A DNA stretch of 64,000 nt from a virus. The translations under genes and the position numbers were made by a program. How positions within the stretch are numbered: the stretch's first letter is position 1; the number at the start of each line of letters is the position of its first letter. The notes below the pieces were generated by a model. It was not told the origin of the DNA, made no database searches, and was given only the letters and a program-made list of their open reading frames with translations. This document shows positions 812-46,263 of the stretch, one piece after another. Location of the stretch: positions 1 to 64,000 of the IMG/VR virus record IMGVR_UViG_3300033141_005269; one strand, 5' to 3'.

Positions 812-1705
812 ATGAAAATTTTCTTATTGAGTAGTTTCAGCTTTGGAGAATACGGAGTATTAGTTTATTACGCTTTGCGAGATTTGGGACATCAAGTCTT
901 CGCCTTTGATTATCGAAAAACTCTTGCGCAGTTCGGCGAAGAGGAGATGAACTATAGATTCATAAAAAGTGCGCTTGCTTGGGAACCCGATGTTTTATTC
1001 GCGATAAAAGCTGAATGGATGAGAAAAAACGTTCTTGATTTGTTATCATGCAGAAAAATTTTGTGGTTTCCGGATGCTGGGACTAGATATGCTCGCTTTG
1101 AACAGATTAAGGACAGCTTTGATGAAGTTTACATGACAGAATTCGGTAGGGGATATGATACCTTGTATCCGGGGGCATACCCACCGGTCCATCGCGAGGT
1201 GGAGTTGAAGGGAGACGACCTCTGGAAATACAAGACCGATTGCGTCTTCGTTGGTACAGCACATCCACAAAGAATTAAAAGTTTCCGGAAGTTAATCAAT
1301 GGTCTTTCTGTTAGAATGAAAATTTGGGGTAATGGTTGGCCAGAAGATTTTCCGTATTATGCTGGCGGACCGAAATATTTCCTCGAATTATCAAAAGCAA
1401 TTAGTGGCGCGAAAGTTGTGATAAATTTTCATTATGATTGGCCATACACGCCGAGTATTCGAGCTTTCGAGGTTACTGCCTGTAAGCGCTGTTATATTAG
1501 CGAAGAAGGAGAAGGACTAAATAATTGTTTCGAGCCGAACAAGGAGTATGTTCTATTTAATACTATTGAAGAAGCTCGAGAAAAAATCAAGTATTATCTG
1601 GAACACGACGATGAACGAGAACGAATTGCGGAGAATGGATATAAGAGATGTATGCGAGATCATTTATTAACAAAAAGATTAGAAGGAGTTTTGAGAAATG
1701 GTTGA
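812..1705 (+). CDS. Glycosyltransferase, CgeB/Glyco_trans_1_2-like
   Basis: VFVGT..R, IWGNGW, RAFEVTAC, YYLEHDDERERIAENGY. Confidence 0.85.
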   Translation: MKIFLLSSFSFGEYGVLVYYALRDLGHQVFAFDYRKTLAQFGEEEMNYRFIKSALAWEPDVLFAIKAEWMRKNVLDLLSCRKILWFPDAGTRYARFEQIKDSFDEVYMTEFGRGYDTLYPGAYPPVHREVELKGDDLWKYKTDCVFVGTAHPQRIKSFRKLINGLSVRMKIWGNGWPEDFPYYAGGPKYFLELSKAISGAKVVINFHYDWPYTPSIRAFEVTACKRCYISEEGEGLNNCFEPNKEYVLFNTIEEAREKIKYYLEHDDERERIAENGYKRCMRDHLLTKRLEGVLRNG

Positions 1706-2762
1706 TGTTATCTATACTGGGAAAGTTGAGTTGGGCGGGGCCGGAATTGGAAAAACTGCGCTTCATCAAGTTAAACCTCTTATCGAGAAGAATTTGTTAA
1801 AAAGAGCCTATGTTGCGAATACTGTTCCAGAGTTCAAAGAATATGTAACGATTATACCAACGGTTAAAGCTGACTATGCGAGCCAGGACCTTATGTTTGA
1901 CTCAGTAACTTCTTTAGTTGCTCAATCATCCAAATTATTACAGAGTTGGTTATCGCACAGTTTATTTACAATGCAGAGCTTGAACTTTGAATACAAGGTA
2001 GTTAATTGCTTCAGTGCTCATGTCCAAGAACAGGAAGAATTAATCGAAAAAGCGATTGGACCTACAATGATTATTCATCCACTTCTAAAAGAGAAAATTA
2101 TTCGAGAAATGAAGCTCGCGACGCATATTTTATGCCCTTCAGAATTTGTTTTCGAGAGTTTGAAAAAACACGGACTTGCATCGAAAGCTCAGATAATTCC
2201 ATTTGGTGTTGACACAGAGAAGTTTGTTCCTGGAAAGAAACTAGATGAGAAGTTTCGAATATTATTTATTGGAAGAAACTGGATAAGGAAAGGATTAATT
2301 TATTTGCTAAGTGCTTGGAACGAACTTGAATTGAAGGATGCAGAATTACTCGTCATAACTTCCAAAATACCAGAACAAGTTGAACTACCTCCAAACACTC
2401 GAGTTGTTGAATGGGTTGACGATATTATCGAAACTTATCAAAACTCCGATGTATTTGTCTTGCCCGCAATAGAAGACGGATGCCCACTAGTTACTTATGA
2501 GGCGCTGGCTTGTGGTTTGCCCGTAATTATAAGTAAGACAACTGGAACGAAGCAGCATGTTTGGAATGGAACTAATGGCTTCGTGATTGATTCAGGCAAT
2601 GTTTCAGAGATTGCAGATCGAATAAAATTTCTTTACGAACATCGAAACGAGCTTGCTGAAATGAAGAAAAAGGCTCGAGAAAGCGTTATGGGCTTAACAT
2701 GGAAGAGTTTTGAAGAGCAATATGCGAAATGGATCCAAGGCATATTAAATGGTAATTTTTGA
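1698..2762 (+). CDS. GT4 family glycosyltransferase
   Basis: IPFGVD, RKG, DVFVLPAIEDGCPLVTYEALACGLPVI. Confidence 0.9.
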   Translation: MVDVIYTGKVELGGAGIGKTALHQVKPLIEKNLLKRAYVANTVPEFKEYVTIIPTVKADYASQDLMFDSVTSLVAQSSKLLQSWLSHSLFTMQSLNFEYKVVNCFSAHVQEQEELIEKAIGPTMIIHPLLKEKIIREMKLATHILCPSEFVFESLKKHGLASKAQIIPFGVDTEKFVPGKKLDEKFRILFIGRNWIRKGLIYLLSAWNELELKDAELLVITSKIPEQVELPPNTRVVEWVDDIIETYQNSDVFVLPAIEDGCPLVTYEALACGLPVIISKTTGTKQHVWNGTNGFVIDSGNVSEIADRIKFLYEHRNELAEMKKKARESVMGLTWKSFEEQYAKWIQGILNGNF

Positions 2763-2984: not shown

Positions 2985-3158
2985 ATGGAAAATCTAGAAG
3001 TTGCAGAAAATCTGAGGTTTCTGAAGCTTACTTTTACATGTCCTGAGAACCTAATCGAGGGGTTAGATAAACTCTGTAAAGCTAAAGGGTACCATCGAAG
3101 CGAAGCGATAAGAAGTGCGATAAGAGATAAACTCGATCGCGAAAGAATCAAGTATTGA
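2985..3158 (+). CDS. Ribbon-helix-helix (CopG-like) regulator, 57 aa, below the ORF-track cutoff
   Basis: Manual translation MENLEVAENLRFLKLTFTCPENLIEGLDKLCKAKGYHRSEAIRSAIRD; GAGGTG SD. Confidence 0.8.
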   Translation: MENLEVAENLRFLKLTFTCPENLIEGLDKLCKAKGYHRSEAIRSAIRDKLDRERIKY

Positions 3159-3252
3159 GGGAACAGACCCTTCTCGAGAACTACAACTTCCTTTATTTTT
3201 TACTCGAAATGTTTAAATAATTGTATGTCTTAAAGTTATATCGGTGAAACAA

Positions 3253-3402
3253 ATGCCAACACGGGTTGTTCATGAGAAGAAAGTAATTTTTAGAATGTCC
3301 GTTGACCTATTAGATAAGCTTGATCGTTACTGTGAAGCTTATGGTTATACTCGAAGCGAAGCAATACGGAAAGCTATCAGATCATTGGTCGGTATAAAAT
3401 GA
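3253..3402 (+). CDS. Ribbon-helix-helix regulator, 49 aa
   Basis: Manual translation includes [33 protein letters not shown]. Confidence 0.8.
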
Positions 3403-3671
3403 TCTTGTCATATGAAGATGAGATCGCGAATGAGCTTGGAATAACGGAAGAAACCTTTGTTGGGACTATTGAAGTTATTGGCAGGCGTTTGAATATCTGT
3501 CCTTATGTAATTGACCTTAGGAACTTACGGAAGATTATTCGAAAGGCTAGTAAACTCGGATATCAAGTTGCTTTACCGCGAGCTGTTTTGAGTAACTCGA
3601 AAGTCTTAAGAATTAAAGGCTTTTATAAAACAGAGAATTTTTGGGTATTGGAACCTCAAGAGAAAAGATGA
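3399..3671 (+). CDS. Hypothetical protein
   Basis: ATGA overlap with the upstream RHH gene. Confidence 0.5.
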
Positions 3672-3964
3672 GGATAACGCTCCTTTATTTTTCTATATTC
3701 CTCAACTTCATCGAGAAGACGATTTATTAACTCGTTCCACTTTTCGCCGAAGAATCCGAAGCGTTGAAGACGAATTTTTGTTCCTGTTCGAATCGAGATA
3801 GTTGTAATTTTCCAGTCTGGAAACTCGATATCTAAACTCGGGTTTCGTTCGTGTTCGAGTCTATGACAGCGAGAACAAAGCGGAATGAATTGCTCCGGAG
3901 AATGAGCTATCCAGTGAACTTCAATATTTTTGCGAGAACCGCAATTGCGACAAACTCGATCCAA
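3656..3964 (-). CDS. HNH-like Zn domain with a C-terminal DNA-binding-like domain
   Basis: CRNCG..EVH..LCSRCH; TTISIR...LINRLLD. Confidence 0.6.
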   Translation of the reverse strand: MDRVCRNCGSRKNIEVHWIAHSPEQFIPLCSRCHRLEHERNPSLDIEFPDWKITTISIRTGTKIRLQRFGFFGEKWNELINRLLDEVEEYRKIKERYPHLFS

Positions 3965-4077
3965 GCCTAACCCATGTGAAAATAAGTATTGTTTAATTAA
4001 TAAAAATTGCTATTTGCAGAAACTTTATAAAGTAAGTTTACAAGAACTTCGAATGAATAAATTAGAGGTGGAAATGA

Positions 4078-4869
4078 ATGAGTGTAGCGAAAAGAGCCTG
4101 GTTACCAGAAGAAATTCAGTTATTGAAGTCAGAGTATGCCACTAACTCGCTTGATGAACTCTGTAAAGTAATAGGTCGTCATAGCCGAAGAGCGATACGA
4201 CAAAAAGCTTATACACTAAACTTAAGAAAACATCCTTGGAAATACGAAGTGAATCATAACTTTTTTGAAGAATGGAATGAAGAGATGGCTTATATCTTAG
4301 GCTTTTTCTGCGCCGATGGTTGTCTGAAAGATAGAAACAGGATTAATTTTTCGAATTGCGAATATGAAATAATTCGTCTTATAAAATTGGCTTTACAAGC
4401 TGAAAATCCGATTTATGAATTCAATCGAGAAAATAGAAAAACACTTTATGTTTTGGAATTTACTTCTAAGAAAATTAAAGAAAAACTCGAAGAGATTGGA
4501 TTGACTGAAAAGAAATCCTCTACTCTCAAATTTCCAAAAGTTCCAATTGATTATTTGAAAGATTTTATTCGTGGATTTTTTGATGGCGATGGGGGACTTC
4601 ACATTTCGAAACGAAACAATCAACTAATTATTTACTTTGCTTCTGGCTCGGAAGCGTTTATAAAGAGCTTGGAAAAGAAATTACGTTGCAAACTCAAATT
4701 GAGAGAAAAGAAAATAAACTTTCGAGGAGGAGTTTATAGATTGAGGTATTATTCAAACGAAGCGAAAACAATTCTATCTTGGTTATATGAAGGCGCTTCA
4801 TTATTCATGAAATCGAAATACGAAAAGTTTATGGTCCTATCGGACATAAGAAGAAACAAAGGAGGTTAA
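4078..4869 (+). CDS. Free-standing two-motif LAGLIDADG homing endonuclease
   Basis: YILGFFCADG and FIRGFFDGDG motifs. Confidence 0.9.
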   Translation: MSVAKRAWLPEEIQLLKSEYATNSLDELCKVIGRHSRRAIRQKAYTLNLRKHPWKYEVNHNFFEEWNEEMAYILGFFCADGCLKDRNRINFSNCEYEIIRLIKLALQAENPIYEFNRENRKTLYVLEFTSKKIKEKLEEIGLTEKKSSTLKFPKVPIDYLKDFIRGFFDGDGGLHISKRNNQLIIYFASGSEAFIKSLEKKLRCKLKLREKKINFRGGVYRLRYYSNEAKTILSWLYEGASLFMKSKYEKFMVLSDIRRNKGG

Positions 4870-4904
4870 AAAATGGGAGAGTTGAAAAGTGAGGTGACCT
4901 TCCC

Positions 4905-5304
4905 ATGAGTGTTGCCAAATGAGCTTTGAGGAAACCTCAAGCTCTGGTTAAGAGCTTGGGAAGGCCATATCAAGAAAGACGGATCGGAAATCGGTTTCGC
5001 GGAAGGAAGTATAACTATAGATCGTGGACTGCAAACGTTTTATGAACTCGGAAATTATGATCTGGCGGCTAGACGAGAAACAGCTCGCGAAATAACAGGA
5101 ACAATTGATCATGGGTTTATAGATCCCACGCTGTTTGGTACTTTAGCTACGGGAAATAACATGACAACTTTCCAAATCGAAATGAGTACTGCTGACGGGC
5201 GCTTTACCCTGAGCGGATGTACAATCGAAAGCTACGACTTCGATATTCCAACTGATGGTTGGATAACTGAAAGCATAGATTTCAGAGCTAAGGGATTTGG
5301 ATGA
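4905..5304 (+). CDS. Tail tube-like protein 1, spliced join(4905..4919,4951..5304), 122 aa
   Basis: GAGGTG SD before ATG 4905. Spliced product is MSVAK|RAWEGHIKKDG. Its C-terminus FTLSGCTIESYDFDIPTDGWITESIDFRAKG parallels the next gene (FKFSGCYIESLDQDNAADDWSTFSVDLRALG). Confidence 0.8.
4920..4950 (+). other. 31-nt BHB intron in the tail tube gene
   Basis: GCCA/UGGU central helix, bulges AAU and UAA, intron hairpin GAGCUU(U)GAGG-AAA-CCUCAAGCUC. Removal deletes an in-frame TGA and fixes the frame. Confidence 0.85.
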
Positions 5305-5315
5305 GGTGATTAGAA

Positions 5316-5726
5316 ATGAGCGTGCAGACTGGAAAAGATGTAGAGGTTTATTATCATAATGGAGCTTTCGCTGATTTGTTTGCGTCTGGAACACTGATTG
5401 GATTAGCTGAAACTGCGACTTGGAGCATGGATGAAGGACTCGAAGAATATCATGGCGCTGGTAAGCGATTACCATGGGGTATTGCACCTGGTCCAAAAAG
5501 TGTAACCTTAACACTCGAAGGATTATGGGTTGAGAGCGGAGCACAGAAATTTTTCATGGACGAAATAGTGAAAAGCGGAGCAACAAATCAATTCCATGTT
5601 GGAATAAGTGGTTTAGATCGCGCCTTTAAGTTCAGTGGTTGTTATATCGAGAGCTTGGATCAAGACAATGCAGCAGATGATTGGTCAACTTTCAGTGTGG
5701 ACTTACGTGCACTTGGGATAAGCTAG
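5316..5726 (+). CDS. Tail tube-like protein 2
   Basis: Beta-rich, 136 aa, immediately before the chaperone and tape measure genes. Confidence 0.7.
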   Translation: MSVQTGKDVEVYYHNGAFADLFASGTLIGLAETATWSMDEGLEEYHGAGKRLPWGIAPGPKSVTLTLEGLWVESGAQKFFMDEIVKSGATNQFHVGISGLDRAFKFSGCYIESLDQDNAADDWSTFSVDLRALGIS

Positions 5727-5735
5727 GTGGAATAA

Positions 5736-6152
5736 ATGTCTAAGGAAGAGGAAAGAAGGAAACGCGTAGAAGAAGCTCGGAAAAGAATACAAGCTGAACG
5801 CGAAAAACTGCTTAAAGAAGCGCCAAAACTCACAGCAGAATTATTGCAAGGAGTGGCAGTAAGCGAAGAAGTTCCAGTTCGGTTGAAGAATGGAAAATTC
5901 GCGAAGATTACAGTTCATGCGCTGAGCGAAGGTGATATGCTCGAGGCACTTGCTTCGAAACCAAATCTGAACCTTGGGAACTTGACGATCAGTGATTATG
6001 ATGTGTTAGTTAAAATCGCTACGAAAGCCACTGATTTCGATGAAGAACAATTGAAACAAGGACTCGCTTTTGGAGAAAGCGCAGTTATCGCGAATAAAGC
6101 TCTGGAATTAAGTGGCTTTGGTCAGGAGAAAGAAATCGAGTCCTTTCGTTAG
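5736..6152 (+). CDS. Tail assembly chaperone
   Basis: Lies between tube and TMP genes; ends at TCC TTT CGT TAG. Confidence 0.7.
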   Translation: MSKEEERRKRVEEARKRIQAEREKLLKEAPKLTAELLQGVAVSEEVPVRLKNGKFAKITVHALSEGDMLEALASKPNLNLGNLTISDYDVLVKIATKATDFDEEQLKQGLAFGESAVIANKALELSGFGQEKEIESFR

Positions 6153-6333
6153 AAGAACGAGTATTGGAAAAGCTTTTGCCTTTTTAGTAACAAAGGGCCA
6201 TACATTGGCCGAACTGAGAAACTGTACACACACGCAGATATTGTTTTACTTGGAAGCGTATCGCTGGCAAGCAACGGAAGAAAGAAGAGCTATGAGGCGC
6301 GCGAGAAGAAAATCACGACCAAGGTTGAAGTAA
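6145..6333 (+). CDS. Tail assembly chaperone C-terminal extension via a putative +1 frameshift
   Basis: The +1 frame is open from the TTT-CGT site to just before the TMP start and has no evident SD or start of its own. Confidence 0.6.
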   Translation, partial: FVRRTSIGKAFAFLVTKGHTLAELRNCTHTQILFYLEAYRWQATEERRAMRRARRKSRPRLK

Positions 6334-6334
6334 T

Positions 6335-8617
6335 ATGAGTATGGGAACAAGTACGTTAAGGATTATTCTGCGGGGAGAAGTTAGTGGACTCGAGGGAGCA
6401 TTAACGCGCGCCGTAATGTCTTTGACAAACTTTCGAGATGCGGTTAAGAAGGTTTCAGATGCACATCCTGGGCTAATTTCAGCTTTGACCGCAGCAAGCG
6501 CATATTACTCAGCTTTGGGCGTCGCTGTTGGAAAAGCAGTTAATGCAACGAGAGATTTTGAATACCAGATGTATAGAATAAAATCACTTTTCGTCGCGCT
6601 TGAAAGCTCAACGGAAGACGCAACGAAGGCTTATGAAGAAATGCACGATGCGGCATTGAGAATAGGCAAAACAACTATTTTCAGCGCGACGGAAGCTGCA
6701 GATGCAATGGGCAAATTAATAGAGGCTGGACTTACAGTTAATGAAGTGATGAGCTCAGTCGACAAGGTATTAAAATTCGCTGCTATTTCATCGATTAGTT
6801 TGGAAAGAGCCTCAATTATCGCAGTCCAGGTAATGCGAGCATTTGGCTTGGAAGCTGAGCAGCTTGATAAGGCGCTTGGCGTAATGACTATAGCCGCACT
6901 TGAGTCAACTGGAAGAATTTCAGATATGGCATTATCAATTGGATATGTCGCTGGTGTCGCTGGTGAACTTGGACTAACACTCGAGGAAACAGCAATGTGG
7001 ACGGGTGTCTTAACAAACGTTTTGACAACCACGACTGGAACCTTCATGCAAGCTGGAAAAGCTGGGCGATATTTGAGAACCTTGTTAATGGAGCTTTCAG
7101 AACCGAAAACAGCACGCCGCCTCGAAGCTGTTGGTATACAAGTCTGGGATGAAAGCGGAGATAAAATGCGGGATTTAACTGGTATATTTATGGATTTCAG
7201 GGATTTAGCAGGAAAGATGAGTAAGCGGGAATTGTTTTGGTTTGCAGATCAGCTCGGATTGAGCCAGGTAGCCGCAAGCGCGTTGTACTACGCGATGAGA
7301 GCCGGAGAAGAGGTAATAGGTCGTTTTCGGAAGGAATTGCAAGATGTGAGCGATTGGCAAGAAATCTACGCTGAGAGATCAATGTCGCTTAACTGGCAAC
7401 TTGAAAGGTTAAAAAATGTGACTGATGTCTTATGGATTTCAATGGGAGAAGGATTAGTTCCTTCGCTTAAAGATCTAGTTGATTCGATAACAAACCTTCT
7501 TGATCAAGGAGATTCGGTAGAAGGATTTTTGAAAGGATTCGGAGAAGGAATCGCCGAGTATACTATAAATCCGCTTGCAGAAGCGATTAAGTTCATAGGC
7601 AGATTTACAAATAAACTCGATGGCTTAGGTGTGGATGTCGAAGACTTCGGAAAAAAGCTGGGAAACTTATCAATTATTTTACCAACGCTTATGCTTATTG
7701 CAAAGTTTCTTCATCCAGGGTTAGCAATTGCACTTGGTTTATTATCCGCTGCATGGGAATCGAATTTCCTTGGGATGAGAGATGCTTTAGAACCACTTGT
7801 CGAAGAAATTTCTAAAACCCTTCCAGATGCTTTAGCAATGTTTCTTGCTTCCTTCACAACAACTGATTGGGGCGCAGTGGTCAGGAAGTGGATACATGGT
7901 ATCGAAATCAATATAAAGAAAGGTCTTTTAACTATAGCTCAAGCATTTTTACCACTGACGAAAGCCTTAGCAACCATATTACCTATTTCTGCTGAACCCC
8001 TCGAAAAATATATTGAAAGCCTGAAGCGAGATATCGGATGGGGAAAATTCGCTCCGCCAGACTGGGTACCGAACGAAATCCAAGAATATATAAATCGATA
8101 TGCAGATTGGACGAATACCGCTAATAGGTCAAGTTCGGAATGGTCAAACACCACCAGGGAAACTGCTGTAGACATAACACACTCATACGATTTGATGGGA
8201 AGCGGACTCGTCGATTTGAATAAGATTAGTAATAATACTACGGCTAACATGAACAAAAATTTGAATAATTGGAAAGCAAACCTTAATGCTGTTCTGGATG
8301 TTTACTCTGAAGCGAAAAAAGGAGTTGAATCCACTGGATTTTTAGGCGAAAGCTTACTCGAACAAATTCAACGGTCGGCACGAGATTTCCTGCAGAGTAT
8401 AGGAGCTTTCCAAACTTTCGAATTTAACCCACCAACTGGCGGGAATGAGGGAGCTTTGGGAGCTACAGGTGAAAACACAATAGTGAATACAGATAAATTG
8501 GTTAACATCGAAAATTTAAATCTTACCGGGTTTGAAGATGTCGATGCTATTTCTTCTTATCTTGGTTCTCAAATAGAACGCGAACTAAGAGAAAGAGGAG
8601 GTGGAATTCCTGCCTAA
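6335..8617 (+). CDS. Tape measure protein (TP901-like core)
   Basis: TIFSATEAADAMGKLIEAGL; helical, Ala-rich, 760 aa. Confidence 0.9.
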   Translation: MSMGTSTLRIILRGEVSGLEGALTRAVMSLTNFRDAVKKVSDAHPGLISALTAASAYYSALGVAVGKAVNATRDFEYQMYRIKSLFVALESSTEDATKAYEEMHDAALRIGKTTIFSATEAADAMGKLIEAGLTVNEVMSSVDKVLKFAAISSISLERASIIAVQVMRAFGLEAEQLDKALGVMTIAALESTGRISDMALSIGYVAGVAGELGLTLEETAMWTGVLTNVLTTTTGTFMQAGKAGRYLRTLLMELSEPKTARRLEAVGIQVWDESGDKMRDLTGIFMDFRDLAGKMSKRELFWFADQLGLSQVAASALYYAMRAGEEVIGRFRKELQDVSDWQEIYAERSMSLNWQLERLKNVTDVLWISMGEGLVPSLKDLVDSITNLLDQGDSVEGFLKGFGEGIAEYTINPLAEAIKFIGRFTNKLDGLGVDVEDFGKKLGNLSIILPTLMLIAKFLHPGLAIALGLLSAAWESNFLGMRDALEPLVEEISKTLPDALAMFLASFTTTDWGAVVRKWIHGIEINIKKGLLTIAQAFLPLTKALATILPISAEPLEKYIESLKRDIGWGKFAPPDWVPNEIQEYINRYADWTNTANRSSSEWSNTTRETAVDITHSYDLMGSGLVDLNKISNNTTANMNKNLNNWKANLNAVLDVYSEAKKGVESTGFLGESLLEQIQRSARDFLQSIGAFQTFEFNPPTGGNEGALGATGENTIVNTDKLVNIENLNLTGFEDVDAISSYLGSQIERELRERGGGIPA

Positions 8618-11503: not shown

Positions 11504-11767
11504 ATGATAAGAATTAAAAGTTTAGCTCGAGAATTAGACGCAGCAGTGATAACTATTGAATTCGATGATTCAGATGGCAACTTGCACGAAATAACGCATA
11601 AAGTGTCAGCTAGCTTGCTGAATAATATGACGGAAGAAGAAATAAAAAGGAAAATTAAGAATGTAGTCGCCATTAAGAGAATGAATTTAATCGAGACAAG
11701 CTTGCGCGAGAAACTCGAGAAAATGATGGGTGTTGATTTGGAGGCAGGTGAAAGTGCCGAGTTATGA
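11504..11767 (+). CDS. Hypothetical protein
   Basis: AGGTG SD; within the tail operon. Confidence 0.55.
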   Translation: MIRIKSLARELDAAVITIEFDDSDGNLHEITHKVSASLLNNMTEEEIKRKIKNVVAIKRMNLIETSLREKLEKMMGVDLEAGESAEL

Positions 11768-14700
11768 GTTAGCCCTTCCTCCGGGCACGAAGAACATTAA
11801 GATTAAAACTTCAACGCAAGAAATCCCAGTAGACTGGTCGTTTACTCGAGATGGTAAGGACGGAGCAGAGGTAATTGTGCCCCTCATGTCGGGCGACGAG
11901 TTCGTCGGTGAAGTCTTAGAAGGCAACTGGCTAAAAGGTGACGATGGAAGTATTCAAGGACCGTTCACGGCGAAGATAAATAATGGATACTTAGAGATGA
12001 CTGGGAGAAGCAATTCGGCAGGAACATATAGAAGTGGTTGGCTTTCCTCACAAAATAAGATACCACTACTCGATGACTTGATAATTGATATTCATCTCAA
12101 ACTGCCAAGCCATTCCTCTTCGGACGCCTTCGAATTTCAATTCTTGTTGTCGGATACTGGTCAAGGTTCTAATCCTGTTTCAAGTAACTATCTACGGGTG
12201 ATGATTCATACAGACACTTCTTCTTATAAGATTTATGCAGACAAAACAATAAATGGCGTTACTACTCGTCTAATAGATTATGTAACAGTTTCGAATTCAG
12301 AAGGCATCTTCCGGATAAAATTCGAAGAGAATAAAAGCGGACATTATCATACACATATTTATTATCATGATGGATCTGGTTCAGTAGATGAAACAACTGA
12401 TGAAGTCTCTGGAAGTCCATTTCAGCTTGGTCTATCTATATCATCAGCGTACCCCGCATTTAGATTTCCGATATCAGAAACAACCAATCGCACAGTCAGC
12501 AGCGACTTCGTTCGCGTCACCTATCCAGACTTCAAGGTTGTTTACGACTTAGACGACGATGCGGTTATTGGTGAAGGCGAAGAGTTACTCGAGAAGGCCT
12601 GGGATACATCAGGGAATGAGAACCATGGAACGGTGCATGAAGCGACGTGGCGAAGAGATGGGAAGTATGGAAAGGCGCTAGAATTTGACGGTGATGACTA
12701 CGTGGACATGGGTAATGCGTTATCCTCGATTGGAAGCTTTACTATTGAGGCATGGATAAAACCAGATGATATATCTGGCATCAAAACTATCGCAGGAAAA
12801 CTTTCTTATGGCGCCCTAACTGGTCAAGTTGAATGGGGACTTTATATTTGGAATGAAAGAATTGCAGTCAATATAGCGGATGGAACAGTTAGTAAACTAA
12901 GTTTTGCTGGTCAGTATTTAACAGTTGGTATCTGGCAGCATGTCGCAGTAACTTGGACTCAAGGAGGAACTGTTACTCTATATTTAAACGGGGAAGGAAC
13001 ATCCTCTAGCTATGCTGGAGGAACCCTTAATGATACAGAACCACTTAGAATCGGAGCGTCTAGCCCAAGTTTAGGGAATTATTTCGACGGCATCATCGAC
13101 GAGGTTCGCATCTACAACCGAGCCTTAAGCGAACCAGAAATCCAAACACTCTATAATGGCGGCGAAGTTACAAGCGGCTTGGTCGGCGAATGGCTTTTCG
13201 ACGGAGGCAACAATCGAGGCGAAGTCAAATGTTATTCGGAAGACACTGAAGTTTTAACTAGAAATGGCTTTAAACTTTTCAAAGACTTAACTTTCGAGGA
13301 TGAAATTGCGACACTAAATCCGAAAACTGGTTTGATCGAGTATCATGAACCGAGTAGAATAATTTCGTACTTCTATCATGGCAAAATGTATCGTTTTGGA
13401 GGCAAGAACTCTCCAATCGACTTGCTAGTAACGCCGGATCATAATATGTTCGTAAAGGAAGATCGCTGGAGCAAATATCGATTTATGGATGCCGAAGAAC
13501 TAGCTAAGAAAGCGCCATCGAAGCATTATTCTATAAAGAGAGATGCAAGATGGAAGGGAAAAGAGACTGAATGGTTTGAGCTTCCAATTCCAGAAATTAA
13601 GAAGAAAAGAACCTTCAAACCGAGAATTAAAAAGAAAGTTCCAATTGAATCCTTCCTAAGATTTTTGGGTTGGTATTTAGCTGAGGGCTGTGCAATAAAG
13701 CGAAAAGATGGAGCCTATGAAATTTACATAAGGCAGAAAGACCCCGCAAATGTAGAAGAAATAATCAACTCAGTGGAAGGAATGGGCTTTCATGCTTGGT
13801 ATGATGGGAAATATGTCCGAATAGGTTCAAAACAATTATTCAAATACGTGAAACAGTTCGGGAAATCCTATGAAAAATTTGTTCCGGGATTTATAAAAGA
13901 GCTTAGCCCACATCTGATTAAAATTTTCTTTGAAGCTTTGATGAAAGGCGATGGTCATTATCAAAATGGCAAACTTCGTTCCTTCACTACTACTTCTCCA
14001 AAACTTCGCGATGATGTTCAAGAACTCGCCTTGAAACTTGGAATTCCGGTGGTTATAAGAGAGCGTTCGGGAGAATATAATAAATCAATGGCGAAAGGGA
14101 AATGGAGCCAATTTAACTATCGAACTAGCTGGCAATTATCCTTCGCTACGAAACAACCTAATGCCAGAGCCACGAAAGTTGAGGAAGTTGAATACTCTGG
14201 AATGGTCTATGATGTTACGGTTCCAAATCATACATTATATGTTCGAAGAAATGGAAAGGCAGTTTGGTCGGGCAACTGCTACGACACAAACAACAGCGAT
14301 AATGAGTCTGAGTGGATTCGAGTCCTTGACGTGAACCATCAGTTTGAAGGAGACTGCGTAATAGAAAATGGGCTGATAAGGCTGTGGATAAATGAAGGAG
14401 CACATCAAGGTCTAAAATTCTATTGGTGGAATGGCTCATCGTGGACACTTCAAGTTAGTGATATTGGTATCAAAAGAACCAATGACTGCGATTATCCATT
14501 TCTGAAATCTATTAACTTCATTTCAACTGAATCTGCATGCCTGAATATACGACTAGAAGATTCGGCAACACAAGACAATGATTATTTTGTAGATATACAA
14601 ATAACCCTGAAAAGAGGAAGTTATGCCTTTGAAGTTGATTTTCAACAGGCTTATCCGAATGGTTCAATAGAACCAGACATCAGAGGGTTTGGCGGTGGAT

Positions 14701-15491
14701 TTGTTTATGTCCAAGATGACTTGATAGGCGGTGGAAAACTGAGTCTTACTGCGAATAATCCAACGATGACTGACAATTTCATAGCACAGTTTCTCGAAAC
14801 TGGAAATGCTATTCTATTCGTTGTGGCTGTAAACAAGAAACCTGCAGCAAGTAACCAGTGGTTCAGAAGTTGGACAGGAACAACAATAGAACTAGAAAAT
14901 ATTGATAGCAACGATATAGAAGCCACTAAAATGTATTTGGGACTTATTCCTTTCGCTTACGTTTCCAACCTGTTCAAGGAAGCCGAAAACGCAACGCTTG
15001 GCGGTGGAGCAACAGTTGATTCGTCACAGGGTGATGACAGTGGAGATTCGGTGTTGCTGGATGCACAAGGAAACTTTTTGACTGGAACGGGAGATTATGT
15101 ACATTATCAACTGGCTGACGTCCTCAACAAGCTACCAAAAGGTAGGTACCTTCTGTTTGTGAGAGCTAAGGACTCTGCACAGATAACTGACGATTTAAGG
15201 TTCTACGTTAGAAACACCACAGACAACCGCTACCTTAATGAAGAGAACGATAAGGTTACTAGGACCCTGACTGGTTCCTTCGCTTATTATGGTATCGTGT
15301 TCGATTTGACTGACGATGATTCCGGAGATACAGTGAGTTTCGTAGCAGAAAAGGCAACCACATCCACCAATAGCATTTGGGTCGACTACTTCCTCATCAT
15401 TCCAATTTCAAACGGCAGATCATGGGCACAGGATTTGGCACACGGAGCGTTACGAACGCTTACTCAAACACCAAAAGTTTATCCTCGATAA
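11730..15491 (+). CDS. Large tail/adsorption protein with a LamG domain, intein-containing (true start likely GTG 11748 or 11754)
   Basis: LamG motifs ALEFDGDDYV, FTIEAWIKP, WQHVAVT, FDGIIDEVRIYNRALS. Confidence 0.85.
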   Translation: MLIWRQVKVPSYELALPPGTKNIKIKTSTQEIPVDWSFTRDGKDGAEVIVPLMSGDEFVGEVLEGNWLKGDDGSIQGPFTAKINNGYLEMTGRSNSAGTYRSGWLSSQNKIPLLDDLIIDIHLKLPSHSSSDAFEFQFLLSDTGQGSNPVSSNYLRVMIHTDTSSYKIYADKTINGVTTRLIDYVTVSNSEGIFRIKFEENKSGHYHTHIYYHDGSGSVDETTDEVSGSPFQLGLSISSAYPAFRFPISETTNRTVSSDFVRVTYPDFKVVYDLDDDAVIGEGEELLEKAWDTSGNENHGTVHEATWRRDGKYGKALEFDGDDYVDMGNALSSIGSFTIEAWIKPDDISGIKTIAGKLSYGALTGQVEWGLYIWNERIAVNIADGTVSKLSFAGQYLTVGIWQHVAVTWTQGGTVTLYLNGEGTSSSYAGGTLNDTEPLRIGASSPSLGNYFDGIIDEVRIYNRALSEPEIQTLYNGGEVTSGLVGEWLFDGGNNRGEVKCYSEDTEVLTRNGFKLFKDLTFEDEIATLNPKTGLIEYHEPSRIISYFYHGKMYRFGGKNSPIDLLVTPDHNMFVKEDRWSKYRFMDAEELAKKAPSKHYSIKRDARWKGKETEWFELPIPEIKKKRTFKPRIKKKVPIESFLRFLGWYLAEGCAIKRKDGAYEIYIRQKDPANVEEIINSVEGMGFHAWYDGKYVRIGSKQLFKYVKQFGKSYEKFVPGFIKELSPHLIKIFFEALMKGDGHYQNGKLRSFTTTSPKLRDDVQELALKLGIPVVIRERSGEYNKSMAKGKWSQFNYRTSWQLSFATKQPNARATKVEEVEYSGMVYDVTVPNHTLYVRRNGKAVWSGNCYDTNNSDNESEWIRVLDVNHQFEGDCVIENGLIRLWINEGAHQGLKFYWWNGSSWTLQVSDIGIKRTNDCDYPFLKSINFISTESACLNIRLEDSATQDNDYFVDIQITLKRGSYAFEVDFQQAYPNGSIEPDIRGFGGGFVYVQDDLIGGGKLSLTANNPTMTDNFIAQFLETGNAILFVVAVNKKPAASNQWFRSWTGTTIELENIDSNDIEATKMYLGLIPFAYVSNLFKEAENATLGGGATVDSSQGDDSGDSVLLDAQGNFLTGTGDYVHYQLADVLNKLPKGRYLLFVRAKDSAQITDDLRFYVRNTTDNRYLNEENDKVTRTLTGSFAYYGIVFDLTDDDSGDTVSFVAEKATTSTNSIWVDYFLIIPISNGRSWAQDLAHGALRTLTQTPKVYPR
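13230..14276 (+). mobile_element. Intein with LAGLIDADG domain (349 aa)
   Basis: Starts CYSEDTEVLT; block B VTPDH; LGWYLAEG and LMKGDG; ends VYDVTVPNHTLYVRRNGKAVWSGN followed by Cys+1. Confidence 0.92.
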
Positions 15492-25455: not shown

Positions 25456-26286
25456 CTAGGATATCGATTTTATTTCGACTTTGAACGGGAAAACATGCTT
25501 CTCTGTCCATTTAATTGTGATGACCGGCGAACCAAGTGTTGTTGGAACATAGCTTTTGGCTTCAACATATGATATAGCATTCGGCATGTAACCTTTCAGG
25601 AAACTACCAGTGAAAACGAAGTTTTGTTTCATTTCGCGAACATTTAAACCATTATCGACTTGAAGCTGAACTCGCGGTGGAATTGGCCCAAGCAAGTGAA
25701 CATGACCTTGGAGATAAAGCGGAAGATTCGGAAAAATACTCGCGAGATCAGTTATTCTGTTTATGCGTCCGCCCATAGTTCTGGCTGTTGTCCACCCGTG
25801 ATGAGCATAAAAGTCGAATTGCTTTTGTTTTGCGCGCTTGCCACTATTTCGCTTGAAAACTAATCGAATGTAAGCATCAATTGTAAGATAAGGAACGCCA
25901 AGATCATAAGCTAAAGAGTCAACATAGTTATGATTGTGGAGCTTCCAGTGCAGATAGTCATGATTTCCATCCAATAAGCCCAAACATTTTTCTTTAATTG
26001 GTTCGAATAATTCGCGAATCCGACGATATTGTTTATCTGGTGTTGGATAATTCGGGTCGATACTGTTTAAGTCAAAGCGTCTGTCCTTCACTGTAATAGC
26101 ATCTGCATAATCACCCATGCCAAGCCAGAGGCAATTATCCTCGTTTTTTATGAAGTTAATCACTTTGTTCAAAACCCGCAAATCAACGTTTCGATGTCCA
26201 AGATGAATGTCGCCGAGCGCTACAAGCTTAAGGGTCCCATCATCACCAGACGAGTACTCGAAAACTTTTTTCAAAACTTGCATCAA
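25456..26286 (-). CDS. Calcineurin-like metallophosphoesterase
   Basis: GDIHLG, GD, GNHD, HHG, GHVH. Confidence 0.88.
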   Translation of the reverse strand: MMQVLKKVFEYSSGDDGTLKLVALGDIHLGHRNVDLRVLNKVINFIKNEDNCLWLGMGDYADAITVKDRRFDLNSIDPNYPTPDKQYRRIRELFEPIKEKCLGLLDGNHDYLHWKLHNHNYVDSLAYDLGVPYLTIDAYIRLVFKRNSGKRAKQKQFDFYAHHGWTTARTMGGRINRITDLASIFPNLPLYLQGHVHLLGPIPPRVQLQVDNGLNVREMKQNFVFTGSFLKGYMPNAISYVEAKSYVPTTLGSPVITIKWTEKHVFPFKVEIKSIS

Positions 26287-32128: not shown

Positions 32129-34847
32129 CTAGAACTCAAAAACATCTTCTGGTTTTACTTTAGGAAATCCGTGAGTTGTAATCGCGAATGCTGCGGCAGT
32201 ATCAAGCTTGGCCATATCTGCTTGGCTAATCCATCTCCCATGTTTGCCTAATTTAGACATTATTTCCTTCGCCTCATCTAGGGTTATGTCATCTATGACT
32301 AAATAACCTTTCATTCGATATTTCCTCCAAAACTATGGACTTTTTCCTTCGGCTTGAAACAAGACTTCGAAAATTGCTTTGGCAACTTCGAGCCTAGTTC
32401 TTCTTTTCCGATTAGCTTTTATTTTAACCTCCTCCGTAAATAGCAATCCCGCCGACAGAGTCTATGACTTCGGGTTTTCGCTTAACCGCGGAAACAAATT
32501 CCTCGAAAGTGCTTCTTCTAAGCGGACAACTATAATCGCAGATTTCCCAAGCCAATGTTTCCCATTCGAGTTCCCCTGTTTTCGCCTTTGTATAAATAAA
32601 TTTTAATGCCTCCTCATAGCTTTCTGCATGGACGACAGCTACGCCGCAGGTATAATCGCACAAAACATTTTTCCAAACAAACATTTTCATTTTGCTAAGT
32701 CCTCTCCGGGTTCACGGCTGCTCGAAGGCGCGGTATTTATTTGATTGCCGAGATAATTGCTGTCCCCTTCCAGCGCCCCGCATCTCCTTCCGAGCAATTG
32801 CCGACCCAGCGGACGCAATTTTTAAAGCCTTTTCAAGTTCAACCTCTATACCTTCCGCATAAACTCCAAGAATTTGAGCGTCCTTGAATTGCCTAAAGTG
32901 GGATAAAACCATCTCCAGATATCCCCGAAGTTTTTCAAGACGATTTTTACAATCCTCTAATTCATCAGCGTATTTAACATCATTTCTTGTTAAATCGGAA
33001 ATATAATCTCTTAATTCCTGGACTTCTTTCTGCGCATCCTCGAGTCGAACCCACTTCTGGTCCAACAGCGGATTATGCACTCCATCTACAGTTTTTGCCC
33101 ATGCTTCTTTCCATAACGCGTAAACTTCTTCGTAAGACTTCGCTTTGTTTTTCAAACTCATCGAGAAACCTCCTTAGCTAATGCCTCGAAAAGTTCTTCA
33201 TGCTTCGCGATATCTTTGCGCAACCAAGCCTCGAGAAACTTTTGCTGAAAGTGAATAAGCAAGCTTTTAATTCGGATCATCCAAATCAACCAGCTGATAA
33301 TCATAACCGAGAATAGCCGTTTCGAGACCAGAAAGAAAGCAACCAAATCGATCGCGAAAATCAAAATGTTCTATCGTCCATCGCTTAGTGTCCGGGTTAT
33401 AATTTGGAATGTAAGTTTGAGCAAGCCAGCTTATCGCGCCTTTTAAATACAATAATCTTTCGAGTATGGAAAGCCTGCGTTTAACAAATTTCAAATTAAT
33501 CTTCCTCCAAGTGATCCCATGGAAACTTCCAACCATGCCGTCGCTTTTCATGCATAAGCAAGCTATGAGCTGCCATGCCGAGTATGAATGAACAAATGCA
33601 CGAAACAATGAAGTTCACAAAATCGATCACTGATTATTCCCCCAAAATGAATAGCGAATTATTCGCTTATATTTGCACTATCTGTTTTGAAAGCTTCCAG
33701 GAGTGCAGGAGACATCCGGACGAAATATCGATTCGGTTTATGATCTTCAAGGTGTACTCGAGAACCATGCTTGCGCGCGAAATTACGAATTTCAGTATAT
33801 TCCGACTTCGTCATCCGAACTACTACTTCTCCGCGTTTATATTTATAAACTTCCAACTTACAACCTCCAAAATAAGGGAAAGATTTTTCGTATATAAACT
33901 ATTCTTCCCTAAGTATTACTTTCAAATTACCTGACAACGGAAGCTTATTTAGTCTCATATAATCACTATTAAGAATAGTTGCTTCAATCGAAAGTCTAGT
34001 CTCCATTGGATCGAATGAAACACTGAGTTCGCGAACAGTTGCCTTAAGATAGATTTTCTTTCCTTTCAGTGCATCAGCTAGCTCCTCAATTTCAATTTCG
34101 TCCAATTATTGCACTTCCCCTTCATCTGGATTAAGTCCAAGCTCCATATCAATTAGAAGAGCGATTTCGAAGGTTAACTTCATCAACCGTCTAAAATCAT
34201 CCCAAGTCCACAGCTTGTTAAGATGCCCGTGGCCAATACCTATTCCCAAATCCTTAAGCTCATTAACTTTTCTTTCGAGTTCTGAGCCTTTTAAACGCTC
34301 TGGAACTTCAATTTCCAAAAGATGATCAGATGCTCTGCTTGCCCAGCTTTCGATTAGCCTTGAAGACTCCCTCGAATTCGAAAGCGATGTTTTGAGAACT
34401 GTCGGGTCCATAAAATGCATTGCAAACTTGACCAAGCAAATAACTAGCCCGCGCCCATATTCTGACGGTGGAATATTTTTAATTGCATCTGCAAGTCGTT
34501 TAGCTTCGAGTGACAAGAATAAACCTCCAAAACTTTGCGAAGGCGAAGTTGTTGATAGGCTTCAGAAGCCGGTAGTTTGTAAGGTTTGCGGAAATCGAGT
34601 AAGACTAAAAATAAAGTAATGAAGATTAGAAGAACTGGCAATATTAATCCCAGCTTTATTCAATTTTTCGCCAGGAAAGCCAAGAATTGAACATCGCGAC
34701 TATTTTTTCATCTTCCCAAATTTTAAGTCTAGACTCCTCATCAACCGTGACCTTACTTATGTTTTCGAAAATTTCTTTGAATAATCTGTCTAGAGCACCC
34801 TCGACAAATACAGCAACTTTCAACCGAAAACACCTCCAAAACGGAGT

Positions 34848-40746: not shown

Positions 40747-42946
40747 TTAATTTTCGTTATTGATTTCAACTTTGACGTAAACCCATCCTTGAGGCATTGG
40801 GTCTGGTCGTTGACCAGTTGAAACTAATACCGCGACAGAAGCCTTACTAGCAACATCTGAAAGTAATTGTTGAGTTTCCTCGTTATCCCAATCATAGATG
40901 TAAAAATCCGAGAAAATCACTACAATGTCCTTTGAACGCATTAAATTAATAACTCGACGTAGAACCGGAGCGACTTCAGTACCTCCGCCGCCACGAATAT
41001 GCGAAATTACCTTCTCGATTACGTCTTGTTGAGTTCGCCCTTCAATTGTTTCGTAAGCCGAAGAATCCCAGCAGATAACCGTAAATTCACATTTCCTCGC
41101 GATAGAATAAAGCTCTGTCATAGCTTGCGTGATTTCCGTATCAGACATCGAGCCACTCATATCTGGCAAGAAGAACACCTTGGGAATTGTATACCTGATT
41201 ATCCCTGGCAACGCTGGATGCTTGCGAGATGCTCGCCGATAACTTGAAACAACGGTTTTCCCAAGCCCAGTCATTATCGCTTGTCGAAGAATTGTTTCCC
41301 AGCTTACTTTCGAGTGTAGCATGCGGTCAATAACTCGTTTAAGTCCAGCTGGAACAGTACCCGCTAACTTCTGCGTGGAATAAGCTCGAATAACCCGGTC
41401 TCGCCATTTCTGCTCGAGGTCGTCTTCGGAGTTTTCTTGATTGTAAATTTCGGGGTCGCCTTCCTGCAAGACTTTGCCTTCGAGGTTATCATCGCCTTTG
41501 AGGTCATGAGTTAATCCATCTTCAATTTCATCGATTGGAATTTCAATCCCTTGTCCACCAGAACCTTTTTCGAACTGAACTTGTGAAGTCCACTCATGAC
41601 CACAAGAATCACATTTGAATTTAGCTTCGCCGTATTTAACTGAAAACTTCTTGATTCGAATTTGTTTGCTGCCACAAGCCGGGCATTTTGGAGCTCCGCC
41701 TGAAGGCATAGAAATTTTTGGGATTAAATCGTAAATTTCCTCTTTGCTCATTTTAGCTAAATCCTCTTCGTTATACTGAAACTTTTTGAAGAAATCATAG
41801 AACGCATTGAAAAACCGACGAATTGTCCAAGTCAGTCCGCTGAGCTGATATGGCGTTCGCAAGAAATCATCAATCATATCGTTGTTTAAAGAGTTTTGAC
41901 TCGCATATATCGCCATATTTTCTTATTATTTCTTTTCCTAAACTAAATTGGAATTCTGGATTTCGTTCTTGCCCCTGTTTATGCAGTTCCTTAAGAGCCC
42001 AGAAAATCCATTTAATTTCATCGGTTTCCCATGTCAAATTTCTAAGACGCTGTTTGCCTCGAATTTGAATCAAACGGTAAACTAGAAGGGCTTGAGGTTT
42101 TTTGATTATAAGAAAAGGAATTATTTGTTCTAAAATTGATTTTGAGCGAAACCAACTGACACATTCAAAGTTTAAATATAGATCTACTCCTTTGCCACGC
42201 TTTCTTCTTATTTTTCTGATTTTGAAACCAAATTTTCTTGAGATTTCTTTTCCAAAAAGGCTACTTTGTGTTATTCTAATTACAGGATGAGGGTATCGCT
42301 TGCCATTGACATTACTAAAGGTGATGGAAATCGTTCCATCTCCATCTATTAGTCCAGCTAAATAAGCTCTTTCGGTTTCTGAAAAGAGTTTTTCCTTGTC
42401 GATCCACCGTTTTTTCCAAATGTCTTCCATTGTCAATCTTCCGCTTAAACCTTTTCTATCAAGGAAACCTTTCAAAGTTGTCCAACGACAACCTAATTGT
42501 TTTGCAATATCATCTAATTTCATTACTCGATAATTTTCAAGAACGAATTTCTCCCGCTCGGGAGTCCAGAAAACCCGCTTTGATTTCATCTTATATCAAG
42601 AAATTATTACATAAATTCCCTAATAAGCCTTTCCTTTTGGCGACATAATGCGATCTGTCACAAGATTCCACATGAAATGATTTCGATGACCTGCTCGTTT
42701 GGCATCTCGGAAAGCAATATGCATTGTCTCATGTGCGAGAAGCCATGCTTTAGCATCAGATTGCAGATTAGCCCAGAATTTGGGATTAATTGCCATGATA
42801 TCGTTTCGAGTTACTCCAGCAGTAGGCACATCTTCGCTTAAGATTATGCGAACCCGGCGAAGTAAGCTTGAGATGAATGGAGCCACGACTGTTAAGGCTG
42901 AGCTAAACTCATCATAATCCTTTTTAATTCGCTCGAATAAATCCAA
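40747..42946 (-). CDS. HExxH metallopeptidase-like + VWA protein (DUF2201-like), spliced complement(join(40747..41894,42655..42946)), about 479 aa
   Basis: LAHETMH; junction WNLVT-D-SLNND; MIDAS DMSGSM, GGGGT, FSD; adjacent to the AAA gene. Confidence 0.85.
41870..42589 (-). CDS. Intron-encoded LAGLIDADG endonuclease with N-terminal HTH; linear stop lies in the downstream exon
   Basis: YLAGLIDGDG; IIPFLIIKKPQA. Confidence 0.9.
   Translation of the reverse strand: MKSKRVFWTPEREKFVLENYRVMKLDDIAKQLGCRWTTLKGFLDRKGLSGRLTMEDIWKKRWIDKEKLFSETERAYLAGLIDGDGTISITFSNVNGKRYPHPVIRITQSSLFGKEISRKFGFKIRKIRRKRGKGVDLYLNFECVSWFRSKSILEQIIPFLIIKKPQALLVYRLIQIRGKQRLRNLTWETDEIKWIFWALKELHKQGQERNPEFQFSLGKEIIRKYGDICESKLFKQRYD
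41895..42654 (-). other. 760-nt BHB intron in the VWA gene
   Basis: UGAC/GUCA central helix, bulges AGA and AAA, about 15-bp intron helix. Confidence 0.9.
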
Positions 42947-42972
42947 AAACGAATCCTCCAAAAAATTAAGGA

Positions 42973-46239: not shown

Positions 46240-46263
46240 GTTAATCCTCCAAAAATTCGAGAG

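Follow-up and report, generated by a model that had tools for sequence, protein, structure and literature searches.

The stretch of DNA analysed here (the window) comprises the first 64 kb of the 77,415-bp IMG/VR virus record IMGVR_UViG_3300033141_005269, which ends in direct terminal repeats of 114 bp each. It contains a gene for a tail-tube protein that is broken directly after its fifth codon by a 31-nucleotide (nt) insert, which we read as a predicted archaeal bulge-helix-bulge (BHB) mini-intron. A free-standing gene for a homing endonuclease lies upstream of the broken gene, and a second tube-like gene follows it. The locus holds the following features.

4078-4869, plus strand: free-standing gene for a double-motif LAGLIDADG homing endonuclease of 263 amino acids (aa), recognized by Pfam and PHROG profiles
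4093-4950, plus strand: 858-nt insertion relative to the intronless relative L017, delimited by blastn
4891-4897, plus strand: Shine-Dalgarno-like GAGGTGA, read from the sequence, 7 nt before the ATG at 4905
4905-4919, plus strand: exon 1 ('copy B'), ATG AGT GTT GCC AAA, encoding MSVAK, with TGA (4920-4922) directly after it
4920-4950, plus strand: predicted 31-nt BHB mini-intron, from its fold and a geometry test
4951-5304, plus strand: exon 2 of the tail-tube gene, RAWEGHIKKDG...KGFG, 117 codons plus TGA, from a profile match, homologs and nonsynonymous divergence (dN)
5316-5726, plus strand: second tube-like gene, 136 aa, uninterrupted, from BLASTP to exon 2

The preliminary description of this DNA had pointed to the Shine-Dalgarno sequence and to an MSVAK start that runs straight into TGA, and it had proposed that removal of 31 nt (4920-4950) gives a 122-aa frame that the open reading frame (ORF) track overlooks; each of these observations is borne out by the sequence. 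The endonuclease gene and the 5316-5726 gene likewise have GAGGTGA, or a sequence close to it, a few bases upstream of their starts. When 4920-4950 is deleted, AAA joins AGA GCT TGG GAA GGC to give MSVAK|RAWEGHIKKDG, and the spliced frame starts MSVAKRAWEGHIKKDG, holds 122 codons and ends with the TGA at 5302-5304. The ORF listing reports just a 47-aa piece of it (5161-5304). As it stands, the insert holds a stop codon in each of the three frames (UGA at 4920, UGA at 4927 and UAA at 4949), and the frame of exon 2 is open from 4930 to 5302-5304, its first ATG, GTG or TTG being at 5161. Frameshifting was considered and rejected, as a +1 shift meets UGA 4927 and the third frame stops at UAA 4949. 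An internal start was likewise rejected: initiation at 5161, which had been named as a competing source of the protein, would lose two thirds of its conserved length, and the truncated product of either this start or a non-canonical ATC at 4969 would lack the invariant residues R6, W8 and G10. Because stop codons occupy all three frames and the next in-frame ATG, GTG or TTG lies only at 5161, removal of exactly 4920-4950 is, on the evidence of the sequence, the only route to a full-length tube protein.

The position of the join can be read from homologs. With exon 2 alone as the query, 16 homologs from other viruses were retrieved (121-126 aa, 55-85% identity), nearly all of which begin MSVAKR.WEG (MSVAKRAWEGHI) without interruption. 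R6, W8 and G10 are invariant across the tube homolog family, and exon 2 keeps every invariant residue. Relatives at the tube locus were collected from viral and metagenome collections (20 loci), and at the DNA level the tube start is uninterrupted in relatives such as L001, L007, L008 and L017. Intronless alleles, for which the preliminary description had suggested a search, thus exist in relatives, and they carry the predicted N-terminus where an unrelated one would have spoken against the join. As uninterrupted homologs share that N-terminus, the K5|R6 join is fixed, and the predicted splice position is exactly the right one by this comparison. Aligned with L007, the spliced frame gives a gap-free codon alignment with a dN of 0.10 and saturated synonymous sites.

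The broken gene encodes a tail-tube protein, an identity that follows from a profile match, the fold of a homolog model and gene position. The Pfam family Phage_tube_2 (PF18906) matches exon 2 with an E-value of 1.2e-8 and a score of 35.3 bits (cut-off 27). A model of the 85%-identical homolog, which has a predicted local distance difference test (pLDDT) score of 80, was compared with solved tail-tube proteins using Foldseek, and it matched the tail tubes of SPbeta-like phages, phiCD508, phage 812, Mu and an R-type bacteriocin with TM scores of 0.45-0.58 and a probability of 1.0. In the genome, the gene precedes its paralog, a chaperone-like gene and the tape-measure gene (6335-8617). The product of the 5316-5726 gene is related to the first tube protein (BLASTP E 8e-11, 28% identity over 110 aa), in keeping with the earlier proposal that the hidden gene and the next gene are paralogs, and the same order of the two tube genes is found in the relative L001, where both paralogs lie side by side. 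Between the tube genes and the tape-measure gene, a plus-strand ORF of 138 aa (5736-6152) is overlapped by one of 73 aa (6112-6333), a layout that is also that of tail-assembly chaperones made by programmed frameshift.

The intact neighbour invites the alternative that the first tube gene is dead or dying, that the 31-nt insert is an unspliced scar of an endonuclease-driven rearrangement and that the virus relies on the paralog at 5316-5726. In favour of this, the insert blocks every frame, an intact paralog adjoins the gene, the 3' half of the BHB motif is imperfect, and a search of sequencing runs found no RNA run that contains this DNA. Exon 2, however, is intact over 117 codons, keeps the invariant residues and has diverged from L007 with the low dN and saturated synonymous sites given above; a dedicated Shine-Dalgarno sequence, an ATG and five matching codons are retained before the insert; and relatives such as L001 keep both paralogs side by side. 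We consider a dead gene unlikely, and the structure of the insert and of other gene breaks in this genome, described below, also speaks against it.

In the folded transcript, the insert and its flanks form the following predicted elements.

4914-4917 / 4945-4948, plus strand: predicted central helix of 4 bp, GCCA/UGGU, in the minimum free energy (MFE) fold
4918-4920, plus strand: predicted 5' bulge of 3 nt, AAU, with the cut after 4919, in the MFE fold
4949-4951, plus strand: predicted 3' bulge of 3 nt, UAA, with the cut after 4950, in the strict BHB structure
4921-4931 / 4935-4944, plus strand: predicted inner stem of 10 bp with one bulged U and the loop AAA, from the fold
4898-4905 / 4957-4964, plus strand: predicted outer exon-exon helix of 8 bp, CCUUCCCA/UGGGAAGG, in the MFE fold

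The MFE fold of 4885-4975 has a free energy of -36.6 kcal/mol (z -4.6), and one of 200 shuffled sequences folds equally well. All of the elements listed above except the 3' bulge are present in it. The outer helix draws its 5' strand from the 5' untranslated region (UTR) and the A of the AUG, and its 3' strand from bases that code for W-E-G; the pairing of the exon flanks around the start codon that the preliminary description had noticed is seen here as these 8 bp. Taken as a whole, the exon-exon helix consists of segments of 2 bp, 3 bp and 8 bp with small bulges between them. On the 3' side, the MFE structure contains a 3x5 internal loop, and the 3-nt UAA bulge requires the pairs U4913-G4952 and U4912-A4953; the strict BHB structure comes to -27.9 kcal/mol against -30.7 kcal/mol for its MFE counterpart, and is therefore 2.8 kcal/mol costlier.

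A naive genome-wide scan for BHB motifs returns hundreds of matches and is useless as a detector; in its place, BHB geometry was tested at joins defined by homology. At the tube join, the central helix forms four of four pairs, the inner stem six consecutive pairs and the outer helix two adjacent pairs. Two pairs of cuts yield the homolog peptide, one of which has BHB geometry and the other none of it, and among 400,000 random position pairs from this genome the geometry occurs at a rate of 4.8e-4. The cuts that the BHB rule prescribes, at the second bulge base (after 4919 and after 4950), coincide with the positions required by homology. To judge from its sequence, the insert has the shape and the cut positions of an archaeal BHB intron, relaxed on the 3' side. 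A scar of rearrangement in a dying gene would have to have acquired this rare geometry by chance and in the very register by which the frame is restored.

The exon bases around the insert also appear to serve the motif. The Ala4 codon is GCC in the window allele alone (GCA, GCG or TCA in 14 of 14 relatives), and it is the pairing of its wobble base, C4916, with G4946 that makes the central helix complete. The CCTTCCC leader before the start codon has no counterpart in any relative and is complementary to the conserved W-E-G codons. Because this allele-unique wobble base and the CCUUCCC leader build helices, the start of the restarted tube gene is, by its sequence, fitted to the splice motif, a feature that is again hard to reconcile with a gene that has been abandoned. 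No other copy of the 31-nt element occurs in the window, and its hairpin pattern had no match in the viral contig collection. Rfam models gave no match at the gathering score in the window and none in 3900-5400 at E-values up to 1. A self-splicing group I or group II intron was rejected, as there is no Rfam match and a ribozyme core is far longer than 31 nt.

A stop codon followed by a stable hairpin is also the arrangement at the take-off site of phage T4 gene 60, and the tube gene might in principle be read by translational bypassing of this type, with take-off at AAA 4917-4919, a skip of 31 nt and resumption at AGA 4951. The stop directly after the last sense codon and the stable hairpin one base further on would suit such a hop, whereas the landing side would not: no matching landing codon is present, as the codon before AGA is UUA, and the sole nearby AAG (4950-4952) is out of frame and meets a UGA about 30 codons on. 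The nascent chain of five residues is, moreover, too short for a peptide signal like that of gene 60, and inserts of 605-867 nt with the same boundary geometry elsewhere in this genome are beyond the reach of any ribosome hop. Bypassing is therefore barely credible here, and excision of a predicted BHB mini-intron remains our preferred explanation of the 31-nt insert.

The mini-intron does not stand alone. The upstream gene matches LAGLIDADG_3 (E 1.1e-13) and the PHROG 4645 endonuclease family (E 3.4e-47), with LAGLIDADG domains at 4279-4500 and 4555-4764. Its codons 1-8 (MSVAKRAW, 4078-4101; 'copy A') match the tube protein, with synonymous differences. Members of its family, including the enzyme encoded in the DUF2201 intron described below, start with 1-7 variable residues and then W-[ST]-x-x-E; because the family N-terminus natively begins there, the endonuclease is taken to be fused to the tube start at the shared tryptophan. 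The arrangement of the sequence indicates that the endonuclease gene is grafted onto the original promoter, Shine-Dalgarno sequence and first 7-8 codons of the tube gene.

Comparison with L017, the sole informative relative, shows what was gained. The same genes lie upstream in L017 (an RHH gene, for a ribbon-helix-helix (RHH) protein, a small ORF and a minus-strand HNH-like ORF), and the tube gene then follows directly, with no endonuclease gene and no insert at the locus; the L017-type intronless site reads GTTGCGAAAAGAGCTTGGGAAGG. By blastn, window positions 3993-4101 correspond to L017 2926-3024 (promoter region and 5'UTR through codon 8) and positions 4950-5126 to L017 3015-3191 (codon 6 onward). 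The 858-nt gain runs from K5|R6 of the ancestral start to the 3' splice site, and it contains the body of the endonuclease gene, a new 5'UTR with its Shine-Dalgarno sequence, a second set of codons 1-5 and the mini-intron. A direct repeat of 9-10 nt, (A)AGAGCYTGG, borders it on both sides, and the boundaries 4102-4959 fit equally well. None of the 20 loci from the viral and metagenome collections has an insert at the tube site, and no close relatives of the endonuclease were found in the viral contig collection. Just upstream of the cassette lies a minus-strand ORF for an HNH-like zinc finger (CxxC ... CxxCH; 3656-3964), which has 77% nucleotide identity in L017 and, being conserved there, predates the LAGLIDADG insertion. 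At the locus L019 (positions 1-60), a more distant tube homolog departs from the family consensus just upstream of ...SLFKDG, with an in-frame stop, 25 nt from the contig end; this could be another insertion near the start of the gene, and the contig ends there.

The same alignment permits a different assignment of the 5' splice site, in which the whole 858-nt insertion is the functional intron, cut at 4092|4093 (after the AAA of copy A) and at 4950|4951, with the endonuclease ORF within it and fused to exon 1, and with translation of the tube protein beginning at the ancestral start. The insertion, as measured against L017, does begin at K5|R6 and end at the 3' splice site, copy A can form three of four central-helix pairs (GCGA/UGGU) and a 4-bp inner stem (GAGC/GCUC), and four other endonuclease genes in this genome do sit inside BHB introns. 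Folded as two strands, however, the copy A side and the 3' side form no BHB, and the local 10-bp hairpin takes the same 3' strand and is much stronger; the Shine-Dalgarno sequence, ATG, MSVAK, GCC codon and CCUUCCC leader of copy B are explained by the proximal site alone. We regard use of the distal site as quite improbable. It would leave a distinct junction, GTAGCGAAA|AGAGCTTGG (GTA GCG AAA|AGA, against GTT GCC AAA|AGA for the proximal site).

The proximal mini-intron probably breaks the likely recognition site of the endonuclease and would thereby shield the genome that carries it. More speculatively, the endonuclease may cut intronless tube alleles near K5|R6, a form of collaborative homing in which a free-standing endonuclease is paired with an intron that lacks an ORF. 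The preliminary description had suggested that splicing could act as a gate on late expression or fix the ratio between the two tube paralogs. We found no evidence for either, and the genomic context is that of a selfish cassette: because the 858-nt insertion absent from L017 ends with the mini-intron, a selfish endonuclease-plus-intron cassette, which the virus would tolerate thanks to its removal by host splicing, is the simpler reading.

Other genes of this genome are broken in the same manner, and the intervening sequences in them were assigned as follows.

42976-46263, minus strand: AAA+ (MoxR-like) ATPase gene with five exons and four BHB-type introns, from intronless homologs
45286-45890, 44422-45030, 43486-44352 and 43388-43409, minus strand: the four predicted ATPase introns, of 605, 609, 867 and 22 nt, from joins fixed by homologs
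40750-43111, minus strand: DUF2201 metallopeptidase/VWA gene interrupted by a BHB-type intron of 760 nt (41895-42654) with a LAGLIDADG ORF inside it, from a Pfam profile

Each of the first three ATPase introns contains a LAGLIDADG ORF. Intronless homologs found with ATPase exon 2 (P0019-P0023) fix the four joins as YEP-L-AW, PPTV-N-DW, AFL-L-AF and PVP-R-TW, and a blind search for cut pairs gave one or two solutions per join. At every join, one solution has a central helix of 3-4 pairs (four of four in three introns, three of four in the first), 3-nt bulges and an adjacent inner stem of 4-9 bp; removal of the 22-nt intron, for example, gives DPYPVPRTWSW. The split ATPase is not detected by the AAA_3 and AAA_5 profiles, and its exon 5 was not found in three related virus records. 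In the DUF2201 gene, the DUF2201_N profile is itself split, with 42650-42895 covering profile positions 13-93 and 41188-41901 covering positions 91-261, and BHB cuts give WNLVTD|SLNND in frame, with the helix UGAC/GUCA and the bulges AGA and AAA. Together with the tube gene, the genome has six homology-fixed joins with BHB geometry (one in tube 1, four in the ATPase gene and one in the DUF2201 gene). The exon-exon helix next to the bulge measures 1-2 bp in five of the six, which makes these relaxed motifs. That five other gene breaks in the genome follow the same BHB rule also counts against the view that the tube gene is dead and its insert a scar.

Two further elements of this genome were noted. 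An 85-nt stretch of the minus strand (32713-32797) has the form of a textbook hBHBh' element, with the helix CGGC/GCCG, the bulges AAU and UGA and helices of 6 and 8 bp on either side; it sits at the 3' end of an ORF, where its excision would alter the C-terminus and put the stop over the next ATG. On the plus strand, a 1253-aa Laminin_G_3 protein (11730-15491) has a LAGLIDADG domain at residues 733-783 and weak PHROG matches to intein-splicing and to ribonucleotide-reductase/thymidylate-synthase intein-like families; it is probably an intein in a tail-fibre-like gene.

These observations suggest the following route to the tube protein. In the transcript, exon bases GCCA (4914-4917) would pair with intron bases UGGU (4945-4948) in a 4-bp central helix, flanked by the bulges AAU and UAA, by the 10-bp hairpin of the intron and by an exon-exon helix with interruptions, whose last 8 bp lie between the 5'UTR and the W-E-G codons. 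The host tRNA-splicing endonuclease would cut after the second base of each bulge, at 4919/4920 and 4950/4951, and a host RNA ligase of the RtcB type would join GCCAAA to AGAGCU, producing the predicted proximal junction GTTGCCAAA|AGAGCTTGG. A ribosome starting at AUG 4905 could then make the 122-aa MSVAK|RAWEGH... protein, where an unspliced transcript would give only a 5-residue peptide. The mini-intron would have arrived as part of the 858-nt selfish cassette, behind whose endonuclease gene the tube gene restarts with a new leader. The virus also encodes an ATP-dependent RNA ligase-like protein (PF09414; 21459-22313, minus strand) and a calcineurin-like phosphoesterase (25456-26286, minus strand), which together could heal and seal RNA ends.

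The host was considered from the gene content. Archaeal-type proteins include a PriL-like protein, a Hef/XPF-type ERCC4-HhH nuclease (E 6.9e-39), traces of a RadA/RadB-like ATPase and an RHH protein of the aCcr1 family. The closest isolates by large terminase subunit (TerL) include Methanobacterium virus PhiF1 and haloarchaeal tailed viruses, with Thermus phages beside them. Archaeal-type genes, terminase relatives and the introns, taken together, make an archaeon by far the most likely host, if not a proven one. Because five of the six introns are relaxed motifs, there are also hints that this host has a broad-specificity endonuclease; cutting of relaxed motifs has been linked to the broad-specificity hetero-tetrameric enzyme (PMC2738675). 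A protein-atlas search with the ERCC4 protein gave no host lead. Near-identical short pieces of this DNA occur, in small shares only, in four hydrothermal-vent DNA metagenome runs. Two small RHH proteins are encoded on the plus strand at 2985-3158 and 3244-3402, the first of which matches the aCcr1 family (E 1e-10) and CdrS. At least 5-6 glycosyltransferase genes, accompanied by genes for an epimerase, a DegT aminotransferase and a nucleotidyl transferase (window 812-2762, and L021 8982-14097), make up a glycosylation module that is unusually large for a 77-kb virus.

Several observations weigh against a spliced mini-intron. The 3' bulge depends on two weak pairs, and the motif is thus a relaxed one; cutting of such motifs is known for only some archaeal endonucleases (PMC2738675). 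An intron at the tube site is absent from all 20 loci of relatives, which leaves the fold without covariation support. The outer helix buries the Shine-Dalgarno sequence and the AUG and could limit translation; it does so before and after splicing, and any damping would not be confined to the unspliced form. No splicing endonuclease is encoded in the virus record, a search of the genome collection with the tube alignment found no provirus or confirmed relative, and a search of sequencing runs found no RNA run holding this DNA. Short contigs from the four vent DNA runs leave 4905-4991 uncovered and show no joints, and the insert rests on one assembly; an assembly artefact is unlikely given the geometry of the motif, and independent reads do not cover the insert. 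With these points taken into account, we hold with good confidence that 4920-4950 is an archaeal BHB mini-intron in the first tail-tube gene of a tailed virus of archaea, and the virus would very probably need the tRNA-splicing enzymes of its host to make the tube protein. We infer the splicing, the enzymes responsible and the endonuclease target from these sequence features. The dependence on host splicing proposed in the preliminary description is upheld with respect to the hidden gene, its exact removal boundaries and its BHB shape, and the splicing step is a prediction.

If this reading is true, one structural gene and at least two others in a 77-kb genome cannot be read without the tRNA-splicing enzymes of the host, and gene callers would silently lose such genes in archaeal viromes. 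A BHB motif alone could then mark a metagenome virus as one that infects archaea, probably archaea with a relaxed-motif endonuclease. The locus would offer a natural system for the spread of protein-spliced introns through mRNAs by homing endonucleases and one in which to ask whether tRNA-splicing capacity limits virus production, and the 31-nt intron, with its known mature join, would be a compact substrate for work in vitro. A broader proposal, which to us stands evenly balanced, is that a population of mobile, protein-spliced BHB introns inhabits the protein genes of archaeal tailed viruses, and that the tube cassette represents a new mode of mobility in which an endonuclease takes over the start signals of its target and brings with it a leader, a start and a mini-intron fitted to the splice motif, making host tRNA splicing essential for late-gene expression.

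A literature search that lacked most subscription journals found no paper that describes BHB introns in protein-coding genes of viruses. In archaea, protein-spliced introns of this type are known in tRNAs and rRNAs, and cbf5 is the textbook protein-coding example. The intron of the cbf5 pre-mRNA of Crenarchaeota is a BHB intron with a relaxed motif, and the hetero-tetrameric crenarchaeal endonuclease is credited with cutting relaxed non-tRNA motifs (Watanabe 2002; Yokobori 2009, PMC2738675). The predicted tube intron is similar in being a short, tRNA-type, protein-spliced intron in a protein gene, with a relaxed BHB and a removal that is needed for function. It differs in that the gene is viral and structural, the intron comes after the first 15 nt of the ORF and its motif takes in the 5'UTR, the intron travels with a homing endonuclease gene, and at least six such introns occur in a 77-kb genome as opposed to a single cellular case.

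LAGLIDADG enzymes such as I-DmoI and I-PorI are encoded in archaeal rRNA BHB introns. Introns in 16S rRNA have been described in the Thermoproteales (PMC4496867). The combination of a LAGLIDADG endonuclease with a BHB intron, and presence or absence between relatives, is common to those introns and to the tube locus, and four other introns of this genome have the same form. In the tube gene, by contrast, the 31-nt intron does not contain the endonuclease ORF, which stands upstream, fused to a duplicated start of its target gene, and the target is an mRNA. Within archaeal viruses, a Sulfolobus rudivirus has 12-bp 'putative introns' in its protein genes, reported by Peng et al. (cited in PMC2738675). 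These are likewise short insertions in protein genes that have been discussed as possible introns; as portrayed in that citing account, they keep the frame, no BHB is mentioned and splicing is not demonstrated, whereas the tube insert breaks all frames and has a BHB in register.

A parallel to the arrangement of the cassette comes from cyanophage S-PM2, in which Zeng, Bonocora and Shub reportedly described in 2009 the collaborative (trans) homing of a free-standing endonuclease, F-CphI, with an ORF-less group I intron in psbA. Both systems pair a free-standing endonuclease with an adjacent gene that holds an ORF-less intron, which would interrupt the target, protect the carrier and be inherited together with the enzyme. 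They differ in that the tube intron would be a protein-spliced BHB intron and the psbA intron is a self-splicing group I intron, in that the hosts belong to different domains, and in that cleavage by the endonuclease described here is predicted only.

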